Shown piece after piece: positions 5,441-63,449 of a stretch of 64,000 nt of DNA (within the stretch, counting starts at the first letter, position 1; every line of letters starts with the position of its first letter). This DNA comes from a bacterium (GTDB lineage Bacteria; Patescibacteriota; Minisyncoccia; Minisyncoccales; JAGLPU01), in assembly GCA_030635055.1 (NCBI GenBank), contig DAOVZN010000002.1, positions 17,481-81,480 on the forward strand, in the 5' to 3' direction. Under the pieces are notes generated by a model, which made no database searches, was not told where the DNA came from, and was given only the letters and a program-made list of their open reading frames with translations. Position numbers and translations under genes: made by a program.

Positions 5441-5552
5441 TATCTAATTTTAGATTAATTTAAAAAGGTTTTTATTAAATCTCGTGAGGCGAGATTTCTT
5501 TATTTTAACATATTTTAAAAGACTTTTATTGTGGAAAACTATTTTAAGCAAC

Positions 5553-5580
5553 AAAAAAAACGAACCTATGTTCGTTTCTT
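5553..5580 (-). terminator. Intrinsic terminator of the 16S transcript
   Basis: Minus strand AAACGAAC-ATAG-GTTCGTTT followed by a T run, just beyond the 16S processing stem. Confidence 0.7.
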
Positions 5581-5699
5581 TGTTTTGTTTAGTTTTTTGA
5601 AGTTGCCCTAATAATCGAGATTTAAGACTCCTCGATCAACATCCTGCAGTTGAATTCAGAATTCTAAAATTCAACCGCAATCGACACTTTTCAAATAAA

Positions 5700-7185
5700 T
5701 GTAATGATCCATCGACAGGTTCCCCTACCGATGCCTTGTTACGACTTCACCCTTATTACTGGCTTTACCTTAGGTCCCGCCGAGGCGGGAACTTCGGGTA
5801 CTGTCAGCTCTCTTGGTGTGACGGGCGGTGAGTACAAGACTCAGGAACGTATTCATCGCCACATGGCTGATTGGCGATTACTAGCGATTCCAACTTCATG
5901 AGGTCGAATTGCAGACCTCAATCCGAACTGAGAGACCGTTTGGTGGGATTAGCTCCGCCTTGCGGCTTGGCAACCCATTGTCAGTCCCATTGTATCATGT
6001 GTGCAGCCCAAGGTATCAAAGGGCCATGCTGATTTGGCGTCATCCCCACCTTCCTCCCAATTGTCTCGGGCAGTCCTCCATGACATATAAAACATAGAGT
6101 AGGGGTTGCGCAGGTTTCCCCATTTAAGGGAGCGCTTCACAGCACCTGCTGACGACAACCATGCAGCACCTGGGTTAGTGCCTTGTGGGGGCCCTGCGTT
6201 TCTGCAGGGTTTCACTAACTTGTCAAACCTTGGTAAGGTTCCTCGCTTATCATCGAATTAAGCCACATGATCCACCGCTTGTGTGAGTCCCCGTCTATTT
6301 CTTTGAGTTTTAGCCTTGCGGCCGTACTTCCCAGGCGGGATACTTAACGCGTTAGCTTCGCCACTTGAAGGGTCGACACTTCAAATAGCTAGTATCCATC
6401 GTTTACGGCGTGGAATACAAGGGTATCTAATCCTTTTTTATGCCCACGCTTTCGTCTCTCAGCGTCAGGGTCGCCCCAGCTGAATGCCTTCGCTTTTGGT
6501 ATTCCGGTCGATATCAACGGATTTCACCCCTACACCGACCGTTCCATCAGCCTCTAGCGCCCTCTAGTTTAGAAGTTTTTTTGGCATTCCAAAAGTTGAG
6601 CTCTTAGTCTTTAACCAAAAACTTTCTAAACCGCCTACAGACTCTTTACGCCCAATAAATCCGGATAACGCTTGGGGTACTCGTATTACCGCTCCTGCTG
6701 GCACGAGTTTAGGAACCCCTTATTCAACCGGTACCGTCAATAATTTCTTCCCGGTTAAAAGAATTTTACACCCCGAAGGGCTTCTTCATCCACGCGATGT
6801 CGCTCCGTCAGGCTTTCGCCCATTGCGGAAGATTCTCGACTGCTGCCTCCCGTAGGAGTATGGTCCGTTCTCAATACCATTGTTGGGGAACACACTCTCA
6901 TGACCCCTACCCGTCATAGCCTTGGTAAGCCATTACCTTACCAACAAGCTGATAGGCCGCAACCTCTTCCAATACCGATTTGCATCTTTACCGAACACTC
7001 AGTAAACTAAATGTTCGGACCATCGGGAATTAGCCTAGATTTCTCTAAGTTATGCCCGTGTACTGGGTAGATAGTTACGTGTTACTAACCCGTTTGCCAC
7101 TCCCTGCCGAAACAGGGCGTTCGACTTGCATGCCTTATCCACATCGCCAGCGTTCATCCTGAGCCAGAATCAAACTCTCAAAAAA
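5700..7185 (-). rRNA. rrs: 16S rRNA, unlinked from 23S, no evident intron, lacking the anti-SD
   Basis: Minus strand AGAGTTTGATTCTGGCTCAG at 7178-7159, ACTCCTACGGGAGGCAGCAG, and AAGTCGTAACAAGG...GGATCA near 5705. About 1485 nt; ends are approximate. Confidence 0.98.
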
Positions 7186-7311
7186 TGTTTTGATAAAAAA
7201 ATCAAAACATAAAATAGATTAGGACAACTTCAAAAAACTAAAATTGAACTAATATTTAGCTCACAAACAAACTACTTTAAATTTTCAAAATACTTCATTC
7301 TTTGTAGTACC

Positions 7312-7340
7312 ATACTATCCTTTATTAAAATTCTTGTCAA
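7312..7340 (-). promoter_or_regulatory. Sigma70 promoter of the 16S gene, with a boxA-like motif in the leader
   Basis: TTGACA (7340-7335), 17 bp, TAGTAT (7317-7312). Leader contains GTATTTTGAAAA (~7293-7282). Confidence 0.8.
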
Positions 7341-7346
7341 GCAATG

Positions 7347-7418
7347 AGCCAGCGGTCGGACTCGAACCAACGACCGACTGTTTACAAAACAGTTGCTCTA
7401 CCACTGAGCTACGCTGGC
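7347..7418 (-). tRNA. tRNA-Thr(TGT), CCA not encoded
   Basis: GCCAGCG acceptor stem, anticodon arm ACTGT-TTTGTAA-ACAGT, T loop TTCGAGT. Confidence 0.95.
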
Positions 7419-8397: not shown

Positions 8398-9237
8398 TTA
8401 TTTTTCTTTAAGAATTTCTTGCTCTGTTCCTGAATCATTTTTCTCTGAGACAGCTTGCTTTTCTTTCTTATTATCTTCGGCTGGTTTTTTGACTCCTTGT
8501 TTAGCCTTTAATACAATTTCTTTGGCTTTTTCCAAAATATATTTTATTGAGCTAAGAGCATCGTCATTCGCCGGAATAGGATAATCCACTAAGCCAGGAT
8601 CTACATTAGTGTCAATTATTCCTATAACTTTCACTCCTTTTATTTTAGCTTCCTTGACAGCTAAAATATCTTTTTTAACATCTAAAACAAAAATAGCGTT
8701 CGGGAGTTTTTCTAAATCTTTAATTCCTCCAAACTTTGTCTTAAGTTTTTGTAACTCTTTATCTATTTTAATTTTCTCTTTCTTTTTGTACTTTTCTAAA
8801 CCTCCTTCTGCTTTTTTCTTTTCTAAATCTTTAAAATATTCCACTCTTTTCTTGATGGTTTCAAAATTAGTAAAAGTCCCTCCAATCCATCTTTCCGTCA
8901 CATAAGAAAAACCACATTCTTCAGCAAAGCCTTTCGCTAGATTTTTAATTTGAATTTTGGTTCCTACTAAAATCAAATTTTTCTCGTCAGCGATAAGCTT
9001 TTCGATAAATCTTAAAGCCTCTTCAAATTTTTCTGCGGTTGCTTCCAGGCTAATAATATGGACAGCACTTCTTGTTCCATATATATATGGTTTCATTTTG
9101 GGATGAATTTGGGAAGCACGGTGCCCGAAATGAACTCCTGCTTTCAGCATTTCATCTAAATCAATGCCAAAATCACAAGTTATGCTAGAGCTTTTTTTGG
9201 CAAGCTCTTTTTCTTTTGTCTCTTTAATTGTTATCAT
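8398..9237 (-). CDS. rpsB: 30S ribosomal protein S2
   Basis: MLKAGVHFGH, RWIGGTFTNF, IPANDDA motifs. Confidence 0.97.
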   Translation of the reverse strand: MITIKETKEKELAKKSSSITCDFGIDLDEMLKAGVHFGHRASQIHPKMKPYIYGTRSAVHIISLEATAEKFEEALRFIEKLIADEKNLILVGTKIQIKNLAKGFAEECGFSYVTERWIGGTFTNFETIKKRVEYFKDLEKKKAEGGLEKYKKKEKIKIDKELQKLKTKFGGIKDLEKLPNAIFVLDVKKDILAVKEAKIKGVKVIGIIDTNVDPGLVDYPIPANDDALSSIKYILEKAKEIVLKAKQGVKKPAEDNKKEKQAVSEKNDSGTEQEILKEK

Positions 9238-9319: not shown

Positions 9320-9565
9320 ATGAAAAAAGATATTCATCCTAAATACTATAGCAAGGCAACTGCTAAATGCGCTTGCGGGAACACTTTTGACATTGGTTCC
9401 ACTAAAGAATTCATTGAAACTGAAGTGTGTTCTCAATGCCATCCTTTTTATACGGGTAAGACAAAAATTATGGACACTATGGGAAGAGTGGATAAATTCA
9501 AAAAGAGGCTGGAAAAAAAGCAAGGCGTTAAAGCTAAAAAAACAAGAGAAAAGAGTAAAAAATAA
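9320..9565 (+). CDS. rpmE: 50S ribosomal protein L31 (Zn-binding form)
   Basis: [29 protein letters not shown]. Confidence 0.97.
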
Positions 9566-10629
9566 TGCCTAGCGTTAGTGAACTTAAAAAAGAATATCAG
9601 GAAATATTAAATAAGCTCAGTGATCCTGAGCTTATTTCTGATTGGGAAAAATTTGAAGAACTTTCCAAAAGAAAAACTTCTTTGGAAAAAACCATAGAAA
9701 AAGAAAAAGAAATTGAAGATATTAAAAATCAAATTGAAGAAAATAGAGCAATCTTAAGTGCCAATGAAGATGCAGAATTTTCCAGCCTGGCCCAGGAAGA
9801 ATTAAATTCCCTGCTAATCAAGCAAAAGAATATGGAAACAGAACTGGAAAAAGAATTAAATCCAGAAGAATCAGTTGAAGAGGTAAGTCCAGAAAAACAA
9901 AACAATACAATAATTATGGAGATTAGAGCCGGAACAGGAGGAGATGAGGCCGCCTTATTTGCGGCCAATCTTTATCGGATGTATTCCCGCTATGCTCAAA
10001 TCAAAGGCTGGAAAGAAAAGGTCTTGAATTCTTCTCGTAACGAAATTGGAGGAACCAAGGAAATAAGCTTTGAGATCAAAGGAGATGACGTCTTTGCTTC
10101 TCTTAAATACGAAGGAGGAGTCCATCGAGTCCAGCGGATACCGGAAACTGAAAAAAATGGCAGAATTCATACTTCCACAGCAACTGTAGCAATTATGCTC
10201 CGACCTAAAAAAACGGAAATAAAAATAAGCTCGGCAGATTTAAGAATTGATATTTTTAGATCTTCCGGACCGGGAGGCCAAAATGTTAATAAAAGAGAAA
10301 CAGCCATCAGAATTACTCATTTGCCAACAGGAATGGTTGTAGCTTCCCAAACAGCCAGGAATCAACTGGCAAACAAAGAAAACGCCATGGCCATTTTAGA
10401 GGCACGATTACTGGAAAAAAAACGGACTGAAGAGGAAGAAAAAAGTGCCGGAAATAGAAAAGCTCAAGTCGGCTGGGGAACAAGATCAGAGAAAATAAGA
10501 ACCTATAATTTCCCCCAGGACAGAATTACGGACCATCGCATCAAAAAAAACTGGCACAATATTGAAAAAATCATGGCCGGAGAAATGGACCAGATTGTTA
10601 CGAGCTTGAAAAAAGGATTAGCAGAATAA
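9565..10629 (+). CDS. prfA: Peptide chain release factor 1
   Basis: EIRAGTGGDEA, GVHRVQRIPET (PxT motif), GPGGQNVNK, EKIRTYNFPQDR. Confidence 0.96.
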   Translation: MPSVSELKKEYQEILNKLSDPELISDWEKFEELSKRKTSLEKTIEKEKEIEDIKNQIEENRAILSANEDAEFSSLAQEELNSLLIKQKNMETELEKELNPEESVEEVSPEKQNNTIIMEIRAGTGGDEAALFAANLYRMYSRYAQIKGWKEKVLNSSRNEIGGTKEISFEIKGDDVFASLKYEGGVHRVQRIPETEKNGRIHTSTATVAIMLRPKKTEIKISSADLRIDIFRSSGPGGQNVNKRETAIRITHLPTGMVVASQTARNQLANKENAMAILEARLLEKKRTEEEEKSAGNRKAQVGWGTRSEKIRTYNFPQDRITDHRIKKNWHNIEKIMAGEMDQIVTSLKKGLAE

Positions 10630-19152: not shown

Positions 19153-20160
19153 TTAAAGCTTCTCGCCTATTAGTTCGGCAAATTCCGCCATACGGGTTGC
19201 GTAGCCGCATTCATTATCATACCAAGCAACAACTTTAACTAAATTATCTTTAACCATTGTTAAGGGAGCGTCTACAATAGAAGAAAAAGAATTGCCAACA
19301 TAATCGGAAGAAACTAAAGGAGTTTCTTCAACCGCAAAAATTCCCTGGAAATATTTCTCTTGAGAAGCTTTGATAAAAGCGTTGTTTACCTCTTCAGTGC
19401 TAGTCTGTTTTTCCACTTCGCAAACCAAATCCACTATGGAAACAGTGGCAGTGGGAACACGCAAAGCAATCCCGTCCAGTTTCCCTTCCAGCTGTGGCAG
19501 AGCTTTGCCGATAGCCTTGGCCGCTCCGGTAGTAGTAGGGATAATGTTTACTGCTGCCGCCCTAGCTCTGCGCAAATCTTTATGCGGAGCATCTAAAAGC
19601 CGCTGGTCACTGGTATAGCTATGAATAGTAGTCATAAATCCTCTCGCTATTTTAAATTTCTCGTCCAACACTTTCGCTACCGGAGCTAGACAATTGGTGG
19701 TGCAAGAGCCCATATCCATAATATCTGTTTTAGTTAAATCAAGCTCTTCTTCGTTTATCCCTAATAAATAAGAAGGAACACCCTCTCCTTTGCCCGGAGC
19801 TGAAATAATTACTTTCTTAGCGCCTGCGTCAATGTGTTTTTTTGCTCCTTCAATTGTTCTGAAAAAACCCGTGCATTCCAAAACAACATCTATCTCCAAT
19901 TCTTTCCAAGGCAACTCAGCCGGATCTTTCTCAGCGAATATTTTTATCTCATTATCATCAACTGAAATACTGTTTTTCGTAGACGCAACATTTTTTCCGT
20001 AAATCCCAAACAAAGAATCATATTTCAGTAGATGGGCCAATGTTTTAGAATCGGTAAGGTCATTAATCGCCACCACTTCCAAATTAGGATGGCGGTCAAT
20101 TATTTGTTTGAACACTAAGCGGCCAATTCGGCCGAATCCATTGATTGCAATTTTAGTCAT
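19153..20160 (-). CDS. gap: Glyceraldehyde-3-phosphate dehydrogenase type I
   Basis: INGFGRIGR, GSCTTNCLAP, WYDNE. Confidence 0.97.
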   Translation of the reverse strand: MTKIAINGFGRIGRLVFKQIIDRHPNLEVVAINDLTDSKTLAHLLKYDSLFGIYGKNVASTKNSISVDDNEIKIFAEKDPAELPWKELEIDVVLECTGFFRTIEGAKKHIDAGAKKVIISAPGKGEGVPSYLLGINEEELDLTKTDIMDMGSCTTNCLAPVAKVLDEKFKIARGFMTTIHSYTSDQRLLDAPHKDLRRARAAAVNIIPTTTGAAKAIGKALPQLEGKLDGIALRVPTATVSIVDLVCEVEKQTSTEEVNNAFIKASQEKYFQGIFAVEETPLVSSDYVGNSFSSIVDAPLTMVKDNLVKVVAWYDNECGYATRMAEFAELIGEKL

Positions 20161-27260: not shown

Positions 27261-27598
27261 GTTTTAGTAGGTTGGGTGATTGCCCCGTTTTGCGGGGAGG
27301 AAAGTCCGGACACCCCCTTTGATAAGGGAAGTAGGTAGTCGTTAATTGCGACCGAGAGTGATCTTAGGGAAAGTGCCACAGAGACTAAACAGCCAATCAA
27401 GTCAAGCTTCGCCCTAAAGGCAAAACTGATATTTGAGGCTAAGGTGAAAAGTAAGAAAATAAAATTTCTTTCGTCAGACGGTAACGTTTTGGCGTGGTAA
27501 ACCCTATCTGGTGCAAGAGCTTATGCTCGCTTAGATAGATAATCGCTAATCTTTCTACAAAGAAAGATACAAAATTCGGCTTATAGACCTACTAAAAC
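27261..27598 (+). ncRNA. rnpB: RNase P RNA
   Basis: GAGGAAAGTCCGGAC, GGAAAGTGCCACAGA, GGTAAACCC, ACAAAATTCGGCTTAT. P1 stem GTTTTAGTAGGT/ACCTACTAAAAC. Confidence 0.95.
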
Positions 27599-27599
27599 T

Positions 27600-37130: not shown

Positions 37131-39584
37131 TTATCCATATTTGGGATAGCAGCATTTTTTATATTTCTTACCGCTTCCACATGGGCATGGATCATTTCTG
37201 CCAGCTTTTTTGTCCAACGGAGTTTTAGAGCTAGCTGAAGTTGATGGTTCGCTGAACATCGGCACAGATGGCTGAGACGGCAGATTAGCGGCAAAAATAT
37301 TTTTGACAATGGCTGATTCAACAGTATCTAAGAAATTGCGAAACATTCTATGCCCTTCATTTTTATACTCAATTAAAGGATCTTGCTGACCATAAGCCCT
37401 TAAACGTACTGAGTCCCTTAAATGGTCCATAGCTTCCAAGTGATCCATCCAGAAAAAATCCAATGTCCGCAAACAAACAATCTTTTCTATTCTTCTCATA
37501 TTTTCTGTTCCTATTTCCGCTTCTTTTTTTTCATAATCCTCTTTGTTTTGCCCTTGTTTCTCCGCAAGTTCCATAACATATGCTTTTAACCTGCCTTGTT
37601 CAAATTTTTCTAAAACTTCCGCTCTTTTTTTATAAACTACTTCTCGATGCTTGTTCAAAACATCATCATAATCCAAAAGGTGCTTTCTTAGATCAAAATT
37701 CATTCCCTCAATTTTTGACTGAGCTGATTCAATAGCGCCTGAAATTAATTTAACTTCAATTGGCTCGTCCTCTGGAATTTTCAACATCTCCATTAAAGAT
37801 TTTATCTTGTCTCCGCCAAATATCCGTAGCAAATCGTCTTCCAAAGAAATAAAAAACTGAGAAGAACCAGGATCTCCCTGACGGCCGGCTCGTCCCCGCA
37901 GCTGATTATCAATCCTCCTAGCTTCATGCCTTTCAGTGCCAATAATATGAAGCCCTCCTATTTTTGCAATCTCTTCCATGTCTTGAGCAGGATTGCCTCC
38001 CAGGGTTATATCCACTCCCCGGCCGGCCATATTGGTGGCAATTGTCACTGCTCCTTTTTTACCTGCTTGGGCAATAATTTCTCCCTCTTGTTCGTGGCGC
38101 TTGGCGTTTAAAATCTTATGGGGGATTCCTTCTCTTTCTAATAGCTTGCCTAAATATTCGTTTCTCTCAATGGAAACTGTTCCCACCAAAATCGGTTGGT
38201 CCTTTTCATGTCTTTCTTTGATTGCCGCGACCACCGCTTTAAACTTGCCATCCCTTGTTTTATAAACCCTGTCTGACAAATCTTCACGCAACATTGGTTT
38301 ATTAGTGGGGATAGCTGTCACTTCCAGTCCGTAAACTTTATCAAACTCTTCAGCAGAAGTAAGCGCAGTTCCAGTCATACCGGCAAGCTTTTTATACATT
38401 CTGAAATAATTCTGAAAAGTGATTGAAGCCAAAGTCATTGACTCCGGCTGGACCTTTGCCCCTTCCTTAGCTTCAATCGCCTGATGAAGACCTCCGGAAT
38501 AGCGACGACCCGGCAATAAACGACCGGTAAATTCATCAACAATAATAATCTGTCCCTCTCTTACCGTATAATCCTTATCTTTTTTAAAAAGCGCCTGAGC
38601 GCGCAAAGCTTGTTCAAGATGGTGTAAATATTTTATTCCTTTCTCTTCATAAATATTCTCCATTCCTAAAATTTTCTCCACTTTTTCAACACCCTCTTCC
38701 GTCAAAGTGACTGCTTTTAGTTTTTCGTCAATACTATAATCAGCATCTTCTTTTAAATGGGGAATGATTTTGGCAAACTCGCCGTAAGTCTTGGTCGCCT
38801 CAGTATCCGGGGCGGAAATAATCAAAGGAGTTCGGGCTTCGTCAATTAAAATTGAGTCTATCTCATCAACAACGGCATAATTAAATTCTCTTTGAGTTCG
38901 AGCTTCCGCGTCATAGACCATATTGTCCCGCAAATAATCAAAGCCAAATTCATTATTCGTTCCATAGGTGACATCCGCTTGATATGCTTCTTTCCTGGAA
39001 ACCGGTTTTAAATAGCTTTCAATAACTTTAAAGCCGCCTGTTAAATCTCTGGCTTCATCATTTTCTTTATCCAGTGTTGGATCATAAATATAGGCTGCGT
39101 CATGAACTATGCAGCCGATAGACAGCCCTAGCAAGTGATAAACCTGTCCCATCCAAACCATATCTCTTTTGGTTAAATAATCATTCACTGTAATCACATG
39201 AACTCCTTTCTGTTCTAAGGCATTAAGATAAACAGCTAGGGTGGAAGATAGAGTTTTTCCTTCTCCTGTTTTCATTTCAGCTATTCTTCCTTGATGCAAA
39301 ATTATTCCTCCTATTAATTGAACATCATAGTGTCGCTGCTGTAAGGTTCTCTTAGCCGCTTCTCTAACAACGGCAAAGGCTTCTGATAGAAGGATGTCAA
39401 GGGATTCCCCGTTTACAATCCTTTCTTTAAATTCAGTTGCTTTTCCTTTCAGCTCTCCATCAGAAAAACCCTCGAATTTTGATTCGAGGCTGTTTATTTC
39501 TTCTACTAACGGCTGAATTTTTTTCAGATGTTTGTCTTCGCCGCCACTGAAAAATTTACTAAAAATTGAACTAAAATTTCCCAT
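37131..39584 (-). CDS. secA: Preprotein translocase ATPase SecA (compact) with SEC-C motif
   Basis: [53 protein letters not shown]. Confidence 0.97.
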
Positions 39585-46223: not shown

Positions 46224-46982
46224 TTATTTATACAGCAAAGTTAAATACCAATTAAAAATCTTTTCACCCCAAAAAATGCTAATCAAGGTTCCAGTCACTA
46301 AAAATGGGCCAAATGGCACTTCTGACTTTAAACCTTTCTTATTTAAAACGATGAGCACTGTTCCTATTATAGCACCAATAAAAAAACCTAGGAATAGGGC
46401 TATCAGAATATTAGGAAAATTTAGCAGCAAGCCCATAAAAAGAGCTAGTTTAACGTCCCCAAAACCAATCCAGCGCCCCCTGGAAATAAGAAAAATTGCC
46501 AGAAAAAAACCAGCCGCTGCCAGAGCGCTTATAACAGCGGAATAGAAAATATCAATTGACTGAAGATTTGAAACCAGCTGGTAAAAGAATGAAATGATTA
46601 TCGCCGGGAAAATTACTTTATCCGGAATAATATAATATTTAAAATCGTAAATAAAAATAACAATCAAAAAACAGAAAGCGAGAAGCAAAAAATAGGAATG
46701 CTGCGTTAAGGCAAGCACGAATAAAGCTCCTGTAGCCAATTCTGCTAAAAAATATTGTGAAGAAATCGGCATTTTGCAATACCGGCATTTTGCTTTTAAA
46801 AATAAAAAGCTGAAAATAGGAATTAAGTCCTGCCAAGACAATGGATGCTTGCAATGAGGACAATAAGATCTTTTAACTAAAAAATCTTCATTATTATGAA
46901 GACGGCAAACCAAACAGTTTAAAAAGCTTCCAATGATTGTTCCTAAGATAAAAAACGCTGGATATAAAAATATGTCTGACAT
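46224..46982 (-). CDS. pilD: Prepilin peptidase
   Basis: GSFLN, RSYCPHC, KCRYC, GFGDVKL, VPFGPFL. Confidence 0.93.
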   Translation of the reverse strand: MSDIFLYPAFFILGTIIGSFLNCLVCRLHNNEDFLVKRSYCPHCKHPLSWQDLIPIFSFLFLKAKCRYCKMPISSQYFLAELATGALFVLALTQHSYFLLLAFCFLIVIFIYDFKYYIIPDKVIFPAIIISFFYQLVSNLQSIDIFYSAVISALAAAGFFLAIFLISRGRWIGFGDVKLALFMGLLLNFPNILIALFLGFFIGAIIGTVLIVLNKKGLKSEVPFGPFLVTGTLISIFWGEKIFNWYLTLLYK

Positions 46983-63074: not shown

Positions 63075-63449
63075 CTACCGAGCAGCAACGGCCTCTATTT
63101 CTATTTCCACTCCCTTGGGTAAGGCGGCTGCTTGAATCACTGCTCTGGCCGGCGGTTCGGTTTCAAAGTATTGGCCGTATATCTTATTAACTGTTTGAAA
63201 ATTGTTAATGTCAGTTAAATAAATAGTGGCCTTCACTATATTGTCCAGTTCCAACCCGGCAGACTGAAGAATCGCTTTTAAGTTCTCCATTACTTGCTTG
63301 GTTTGTTCGCTGATATCCTCCTCAACTAAATTGCCTTCCGAAGTTAAAGGGATCTGGCCGGAACAGAAAACAAGGTTTCCTGTTTCTATGGCTTGCGAAT
63401 AAGGGCCGATGGCCTGAGGAGCTTTGTCTGTAGATATTATCTTCTTCAT
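63075..63449 (-). CDS. ridA: RidA/YjgF enamine deaminase
   Basis: APQAIGPYSQA, SGQIP, PPAR, LPKGVEIEIEA. Confidence 0.93.
   Translation of the reverse strand: MKKIISTDKAPQAIGPYSQAIETGNLVFCSGQIPLTSEGNLVEEDISEQTKQVMENLKAILQSAGLELDNIVKATIYLTDINNFQTVNKIYGQYFETEPPARAVIQAAALPKGVEIEIEAVAAR

Follow-up and report, generated by a model that had tools for sequence, protein, structure and literature searches.

Loss of the anti-Shine-Dalgarno (anti-SD) motif from 16S rRNA has already been published for a subgroup of Parcubacteria. Tsurumaki et al. 2022 (RNA 28:1041; PMC9297842) report that they could detect the motif in only 48% of Parcubacteria, that the lineages without it overlap the group lacking ribosomal protein uL1 (a link that they call unclear), and that bS21 is often absent from Parcubacteria. 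Here, we describe the 16S rRNA gene in a 64,000-nucleotide stretch of DNA, hereafter the window (GenBank assembly GCA_030635055.1, contig DAOVZN010000002.1, positions 17,481 to 81,480), which comes from a bacterium of the order Minisyncoccales in the phylum Patescibacteriota, together with the consequences of its altered 3' end for translation initiation. Like the published subgroup, this is a Parcubacteria genome of the Candidate Phyla Radiation (CPR) in which CCUCC(U), uL1 and bS21 were all not found, and we see no essential difference from the subgroup as described there, to which it adds one more member. The portions of that paper drawn on here contain no Shine-Dalgarno (SD) usage statistics and no analysis of rpsU, which encodes bS21, or of prfB, which encodes release factor 2 (RF2).

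A second point of comparison is the "SD-blind" translation of Bacteroidia, in which genes lack SD motifs and have A-rich, unstructured starts with A at -3 (PMC6847099; Jha 2021, PMC7797042; McNutt 2023, PMC9976891; PMC13000453), a context described as "Kozak-like" in Bacteroidetes by Baez et al. 2019 (PMC6847099). According to these sources Bacteroidia retain the anti-SD, which is hidden by bS21, bS18 and bS6, whereas in our genome the anti-SD is gone, bS21 was not found, and both U at -1 and a probably leaderless subset of genes are prominent. In Flavobacterium johnsoniae, Naeem et al. 2026 (PMC13000453) report that a strong SD is confined to rpsU, and that ablating the anti-SD impairs growth, a defect largely rescued by an SD-less rpsU start region. 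Finally, our genome resembles the SD-scarce organisms without CCUCC that form category iv of a survey (PLoS One 2024), as there described, in having neither a CCUCC core nor evidence of pairing between tail and leader. That paper names mainly Flavobacteriia and Nanoarchaeia, and the terms "candidate phyla" and "Patescibacteria" are absent from its main text.

The 16S rRNA Has Lost the Anti-SD Core

The window contains a single small-subunit (SSU) rRNA gene, at 5697-7185 on the minus strand, which matches the bacterial SSU covariance model RF00177 with 1402.7 bits (cut-off 50) over model positions 1-1533, untruncated. The gene is full length and the bacterial model fits it end to end. An earlier note, made from the letters of this window, had claimed that this 16S rRNA lacks the anti-SD while its helix 45 is intact and had proposed alignment to a covariance model as a check, and the alignment bears this out. 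The 3' end, GGCAUCGGUAGGGGAACCUGUCGAUG-GAUCAUUACAUUU, aligns without gaps (cmscan) to a consensus ending in GAUcACCUCCUUu. Helix 45 with its GGAA loop (5709-5735, minus strand) is intact, all of its pairs being standard, and is followed by the 3' tail GGAUCAUUACAUUUAUUU (5693-5710, minus strand), in which UUACA at 5700-5704 occupies the CCUCC position. Past GGAUCA, the 16S rRNA reads UUACAUUU where the model has CCUCCUUu. No CCUCC was found in the approximately 150 nt between the tail and the terminator of the unit. The anti-SD core is truly lost from this 16S tail.

The earlier note had also likened this ending to that of eukaryotic 18S rRNA. The two do share a nine-letter string (the 18S rRNA ends in GGAUCAUUA, as given for an oligonucleotide in PMC8112863), but this is a coincidence of strings, and we rejected both convergence on and homology to 18S rRNA. 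GGAUCA is universal, there is no homology past it, only UUA is shared beyond it, and the bacterial SSU model fits. Moreover, close relatives read CACUA or other letters at this place rather than CAUUA, most having CACUACAUUU or very different tails.

Is the tail an assembly or binning artefact, or part of a pseudogene copy, the true CCUCC-bearing 16S rRNA having gone unassembled? The genome is a bin of 25 contigs (767,979 bases, 37.3% G+C) that is 89.6% complete, rRNA genes are often misassembled in metagenomes, and three of the four CCUCC matches found within the order come from short contigs or the ends of contigs. However, only one 16S match exists in the whole genome, the second, CCUCC-bearing copy that could have undone the claim was not found, and the gene is carried by an 85.7-kb contig, in which it is accompanied by a leader/trailer stem, a promoter and a terminator. 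A 1127-nt contig (X1), possibly from the sample of origin, spans 5450-5754 with 0 differences. A 517-nt contig from another study (X5) spans 5588-5747 with 6 differences, the five listed ones falling at 5619-5676 in the trailer and no listed difference within 5677-5774, which covers the tail and helix 45. Since contigs from two studies bridge helix 45, tail and trailer and carry the same tail, the latter is not an accident of assembly. Given also the full, untruncated model match and a loss common to 168 of 172 genomes of the order (see below), we consider an artefact extremely improbable.

The Loss Is an Inherited Trait of the Order

The near relatives comprise 40 genomes, one per family of the same order and 0.3-0.9 Mb each; our genome has 768 kb, and relatives overall range from 0.3 to 1.5 Mb. 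A 16S match is present in 27 of the 41 genomes, ours (G000) included. CCUCC is absent from 18 of the 19 readable 3' ends among 30 loci (one genome per family, our own included). Within these 19, G039 reads CACCUCCUU and G033 reads CAUCUCCUA, and the remaining 17 are without CCUCC. The tails of relatives are varied: the form CACUACAUUU was seen four times, and others read, for example, CAUAUCUUU or CAAAAAUAA.

A larger sample of the order gives the same picture. The motif that precedes helix 45 was recovered in 172 of 301 genomes and a canonically placed CCUCC in 4 of the 301, i.e., CCUCC is missing from 168 of the 172 genomes with a recovered 16S 3' end. In a sample of the phylum, by comparison, the motif was found in 92 of 151 genomes and CCUCC in 85 of 151. 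Outside the order, 85 of 90 genomes keep CCUCC, and the five exceptions are one- or two-letter variants of it (CCUCU, CCGCC, CUUCC, UCUCC and AUUCC). This shows that loss of the anti-SD is an inherited, order-wide trait, which is not special to our genome. The genomes of 27 species have the tail type GAUCAYUACAUUU, 4 of them in the CAUUA form seen in the window; these genomes are labelled Ca. Nealsonbacteria, Minisyncoccales, Ca. Paceibacterota, Ca. Wildermuthbacteria and Ca. Paceibacter, among others.

As for the four in-order genomes with CCUCC, three have it on short contigs or contig ends (G136, contigs C16 and C25; G213, C43 and C64; G133, C98), and two of these three also hold a second, different 16S 3' end. 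These CCUCC copies may be binning contaminants.

Translation Initiation Is SD-Independent at Genome Scale

Genes were called with a simple longest-open-reading-frame (ORF) script, which yielded 744 genes covering 90% of the genome, and a high-confidence set was defined as the 363 ATG starts that closely follow an in-frame stop and have no rival start in their vicinity. SD usage was measured as the occurrence of an SD 4-mer at -20 to -3, compared with far upstream sequence. There is no enrichment: SD 4-mers precede 90/734 starts, compared with 89/734 far upstream, and in the high-confidence set the figures are 35/363 and 52/363. The same pipeline applied to 100 kb of E. coli gives 44/98 vs. 5/98. 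Duplex energies with a canonical tail agree, being -2.14 kcal/mol upstream vs. -3.54 far upstream in our genome, and -5.86 vs. -3.50 in E. coli.

What the starts have in common is their composition and lack of structure. Among the 363 high-confidence starts, A is found at -3 in 64% and T at -1 in 63%, G makes up 3-15% at each position across -20 to -1, and A reaches 57-64% at -3 to -6 and at -11. The region from -20 to +20 folds at -1.73 kcal/mol, while its flanks fold at -3.88 and -3.79. The ATG/GAT ratio, a measure of AUG depletion after Baez, is 51/87 upstream vs. 79/122 far upstream (selection of the high-confidence set biases the value downstream). Within the window, an SD 4-mer at -20 to -3 is present in 3 of 65 ORF calls, A at -3 in 42 and T at -1 in 40. 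The genes that the earlier note had singled out as lacking an SD include tsf, rpsB, fba, gap, secA, pilC and cysS, the identities of which are confirmed by NCBIfam and which do lack one. For example, rpsB (8398-9234, minus strand; TIGR01011, 252.8 bits) has an SD-less, A/U-rich start, and both gap (19153-20157, minus strand; TIGR01534) and secA (37131-39581, minus strand; NF009538) have SD-less starts with A at -3 and T at -1.

Together, these findings show that initiation is SD-independent at genome scale. The "Kozak-like" context that had been proposed holds as regards A at -3 but is too narrow: the context as a whole is A-rich and unstructured with U at -1, and about one-tenth of genes have a geometry suggestive of leaderless transcripts. 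Of the 734 starts, 85 have the motif TANNNT at precisely -12, compared with 21-48 at offsets from -20 to -8. Among these 85, 31 have TG at -15/-14, and TTG occupies the -35 place in 23 of 85 vs. 50 of 649 controls. By this promoter geometry, approximately one-tenth of genes may be leaderless. The -10 or extended -10 boxes (TGnTAnnnT) of these genes end 6 nt before the ATG and often directly follow the terminator of the preceding gene, as seen in the window at 63075-63449 and 46224-46982.

Relatives that keep CCUCC are informative about the order of events. SD 4-mers were found in 24/331 starts vs. 46/331 far upstream in G039, which belongs to the same order, in 34/251 vs. 33/251 in G306, which belongs to another class, and in 61/354 vs. 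31/354 in G308, a mild enrichment. Since CCUCC-keeping relatives are also SD-poor, SD independence probably predates the loss of the tail motif.

prfB Carries a Covarying Hairpin at the Position of the SD

In E. coli, the +1 frameshift site of prfB consists of an SD, a 3-nt spacer and CUU UGA C. Both release-factor genes are present in our genome. prfA, which encodes RF1, is one open frame in the window (9565-10626, plus strand; TIGR00019), while prfB lies outside it on contig C25, with the frameshift site at approximately 1452-1488 of locus L090. As in E. coli, CUU UGA is found about 22 codons into the gene and RF2 resumes in the +1 frame; the site is kept in our prfB and in 30 of 31 genomes of the order, and was not found in the G026 locus examined. 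Unlike in E. coli, the site has no SD partner in our genome and its relatives. Instead, there is a 6-bp hairpin in a fixed register, whose 20 nt end 4 nt before CUU, at the position of the E. coli SD. In our genome the sequence upstream of CUU, GAUGGACCAU, is the 3' arm of this hairpin, and the 16S rRNA has no CCUCC with which it could pair.

Covariation supports the hairpin. In a gap-free alignment of 30 sequences, 86.1% of cells are paired, compared with 73.2 +/- 1.9 in shuffled alignments (0/500 reach the real value), and changes on both sides occur in 29 cells vs. 10.2 +/- 3.4 (0/500). The covariation score is 0.430 vs. 0.202 when shuffled, and controls slid along the sequence are 28-56% paired. 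Compensatory changes in the hairpin alter amino acids, e.g., Leu to His together with Glu to Met. At least five of the six in-register pairs form in 24 of the 30 order sequences, as opposed to three of six in E. coli prfB (AGGGGGUAU), and the 5' arm is often CUCC-like. One and the same 16S tail is accompanied by four different 3' arms in prfB (GAUGGA, GACGGA, ACUGGA and AGAGGA), each covarying with the 5' arm in the mRNA. Since the 3' arms differ while the tail stays the same, the arm follows its partner in the mRNA and not the rRNA. We infer that the hairpin would act as a frameshift stimulator in place of the SD. There is a precedent in vitro, where a synthetic hairpin upstream of CUUUGA was reported to boost +1 frameshifting on E. 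coli 70S ribosomes by "functional mimicry" of the SD duplex (Huang, Cho and Chang 2018, PMC6321510), while a paper on prfB of F. johnsoniae does not use the word "hairpin" (PMC10798248). Among 40 outgroup genomes that keep CCUCC, 23 are without the expected frameshift site and 17 have it; 6 of these sites show a classical SD with a 3-nt spacer, and 11 are GGAC(U/C)GU-like, several with hairpins.

The prfB arms also bear on the idea that the changed tail is a new anti-SD, which pairs with an equally changed upstream motif. The recurrence of one tail type in 27 species genomes would fit this idea, as would a published category of organisms with predicted binding but no conserved CCUCC core (as described in PMC10783764). 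However, the duplex energy of the real tail with -22 to -1 is -2.00 kcal/mol, compared with -2.21 far upstream and -1.74 in coding sequence, i.e., there is no enrichment. Moreover, tails within the order differ widely, yet CCUCC-keeping G039, the only further genome of the order that was profiled, has the same start context (A at -3, T at -1), and a single tail coexists with four 3' arms that follow the mRNA. A new pairing of this kind is therefore very unlikely.

Two further points concern termination. An alternative genetic code was rejected, as reading TGA, TAG or TAA as sense does not extend the longest ORFs and the standard code fits. In several relatives, the RF1 homologue has stops inside the match or consists of frames of 243-271 aa (G031:C1:95126-95491; G017, G028 and G005), and these odd genes may be split, shortened or misassembled versions of prfA.

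An Extended SD at rpsU Goes with the CCUCC Core

The F. johnsoniae result (PMC13000453) is the reason why rpsU was examined in Patescibacteria. A bS21 match is present in 75 of the 85 CCUCC-keeping genomes of the phylum sample (hand tally). Of these 75, 40 were taken, ranked by the strength of the bS21 match and with G308, G306 and G309 added; 39 of the 40 could be evaluated. The duplex of the rpsU start region with the canonical tail has a dG <= -9 in 34/39 and <= -13 in 26/39; typical sites read AAGGAGGUGAU, often before a GUG or UUG start. The background is low, with a dG <= -13 for the best of the first four candidate starts in 27/744, 4/341, 22/361 and 7/260 genes of four genomes (1.2-6.1%). 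Among CCUCC-less genomes with a bS21-like ORF, by comparison, 0/11 reach -9, all being at -4.3 or weaker and all having AUG starts. The extended rpsU SD thus goes with CCUCC and is absent without it. In CCUCC-keeping Patescibacteria it is like that of Flavobacteriales, the signature of which therefore recurs in another phylum. In the literature searched, we found no paper linking rpsU with Patescibacteria or CPR besides a preprint on non-essential ribosomal proteins, although others may exist.

The earlier note had also suggested checking bS1, bS21 and bS18 for compensating changes. bS1 is encoded as a 397-aa ORF with four S1 domains, and bS18 and bS6 are present, whereas bS21 (PF01165) was not found in our genome (89.6% complete). 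A bS21 match was obtained in 10 of 41 order genomes, 3 of them above the cut-off, compared with 124 of 147 genomes outside the order; the match in G039 sits within a 451-aa ORF. uL1 (PF00687) was not found in 5/5 genomes, which include a 99%-complete, single-contig relative, while control matches were obtained in 14/14. Similarly, Era gave no match above the cut-off in 5/5 genomes, among them the CCUCC-keeping outgroups G308 and G306. This agrees with a review in which era is described as lost from most CPR, with Era binding both GAUCA and CCUCC (PMC10582724).

How the Anti-SD Might Have Been Lost

This 16S rRNA is very probably normal and functional, and belongs to a Parcubacteria-type (Patescibacteria/CPR) bacterium, whose order lost the anti-SD core and initiates translation without SD pairing. 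Recruitment of ribosomes would most likely occur at leaders that lack structure, are rich in A and have A at -3 and U at -1, and the four-domain bS1 may have a role in it. For about one-tenth of genes, ribosomes would probably load on leaderless mRNAs whose -10 or extended -10 promoter lies 6 nt upstream of the AUG. The loss itself may have happened stepwise. The phylum would already have been SD-poor. In this order, the last clients of the SD would then have been rewired or lost, rpsU being without a strong SD or missing and prfB using a hairpin instead; Era, which binds GAUCACCUCC and had no match above the cut-off in any of the five genomes, would be absent from the phylum as a whole. Lastly, the 16S tail would have drifted. 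This suggests that the anti-SD decayed once its last clients had been rewired, an order of events that we infer from the comparisons above.

Several observations weigh against this reading. The tail is not random, since the type GAUCAYUACAUUU recurs under several candidate-phylum labels, which hints at a remaining constraint. Hairpins at prfB are not confined to genomes that lost CCUCC, being also found in CCUCC-keeping lineages. A strong, well-placed SD-like site (dG <= -13) precedes 27 of 744 genes in our genome (~3.6%), compared with 3 of 456 in an internal-start control, so some residual SD signal exists without a partner in the 16S rRNA. A bS21-like ORF is kept in 9-10 of 41 families of the order, which rules out that bS21 was lost strictly before the anti-SD, and G039 retains CCUCC without a credible bS21. 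Loss of Era is ruled out as the specific cause, Era being equally not found in CCUCC-keeping G308 and G306. In addition, counts across relatives are phylogenetically non-independent, starts come from a naive ORF caller rather than from a trained gene finder or transcript data, and the mature 3' end of the rRNA is placed by homology.

Genes with strong SD-like sites include C6:7551-7943, C18:133629-135377 and C9:4681-5358. The 20 strongest comprise 11 without a Pfam family, some internal starts and a few archaeal-type genes, among them one for a TFIIB-repeat protein and one for an archaeal-type PurP (DUF1246/DUF1297), which adjoins a phosphoribosyltransferase gene. They could stem from gene transfer out of archaea or from contaminant contigs.

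A more specific proposal, for which we see the chances as evenly balanced, is that SD-poor Patescibacteria keep the anti-SD mainly as a regulatory module with rpsU, whose extended SD and weak start codon would serve bS21 autoregulation of the Flavobacterium type. In this order the module would have dissolved, with rpsU being SD-less with an AUG start or lost and prfB relying on a hairpin in cis, the 5' arm of which often resembles an anti-SD, after which the tail drifted. If true, the bS21 autoregulation circuit of Bacteroidia would also exist in Patescibacteria, and a few client genes would explain why the anti-SD is retained across SD-blind bacteria and predict where it is lost. The rpsU and prfB patterns would turn "relaxed selection" into a testable statement on two client genes, and the prfB hairpin would provide a natural counterpart to the mimicry of an SD duplex, for which synthetic hairpins have been the only examples to date. 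Both the rpsU SD pattern and the covarying prfB hairpin may be new, as they were not found in the literature searched. A practical consequence is that starts in these genomes will be placed wrongly by gene finders in which SD motifs are scored.

Organization of the 16S Unit and Other RNA Features

The 16S rRNA gene forms a stand-alone unit (5553-7418, minus strand). A tRNA gene (7347-7418; RF00005, 71.6 bits) adjoins the promoter upstream, and all features given here are on the minus strand. The putative promoter, as read from the sequence, is TTGACA-17 nt-TAGTAT at 7312-7340, before the 16S leader. In the leader, the 5' arm of a processing stem (7218-7240) pairs over 23 bp with a 3' arm at 5590-5612 (-31.7 kcal/mol). 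Between the 16S tail and this 3' arm lies a structured trailer (5613-5689) with a GUGUCGA box and two hairpins, and the unit ends with a terminator-like hairpin and U run at 5553-5577. No 23S rRNA gene follows; 23S fragments are found on another small contig (C4).

The trailer raises the alternative that the mature 3' end lies elsewhere, either because the rRNA is trimmed right after GAUCA or because part of the trailer is kept and helps to bind mRNA or to build the subunit. The trailer is well folded (z = -3.5), and a GUCGAC box and the first hairpin recur in the trailers of relatives (GUCGAC..GUUGAAG..GAAUUC) while the tail before them varies. In F. johnsoniae, moreover, ablation of the anti-SD is reported to disturb rRNA processing (PMC13000453). 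However, the trailer is enclosed by a 23-bp leader/trailer stem typical of precursor processing, and its removal is the simplest reading. An RNA run (X13) matches only conserved 16S parts of other organisms, with none below 5693 and no contig particular to this organism. We regard a different 3' end as unlikely. A known RNA family in the trailer was rejected, its Rfam matches being at chance level only.

Within the 16S rRNA, the 530-loop pseudoknot (6683-6719) shows a compensated double change, with GCAGGAGCGG instead of the consensus GCAGCCGCGG and UCC instead of GGC on the partner side. The helix is preserved, and a widely used 16S primer site is altered. Elsewhere in the window, on the plus strand at 27264-27599, there is a class A bacterial RNase P RNA (158.4 bits), with some helices shortened and others expanded relative to the model.

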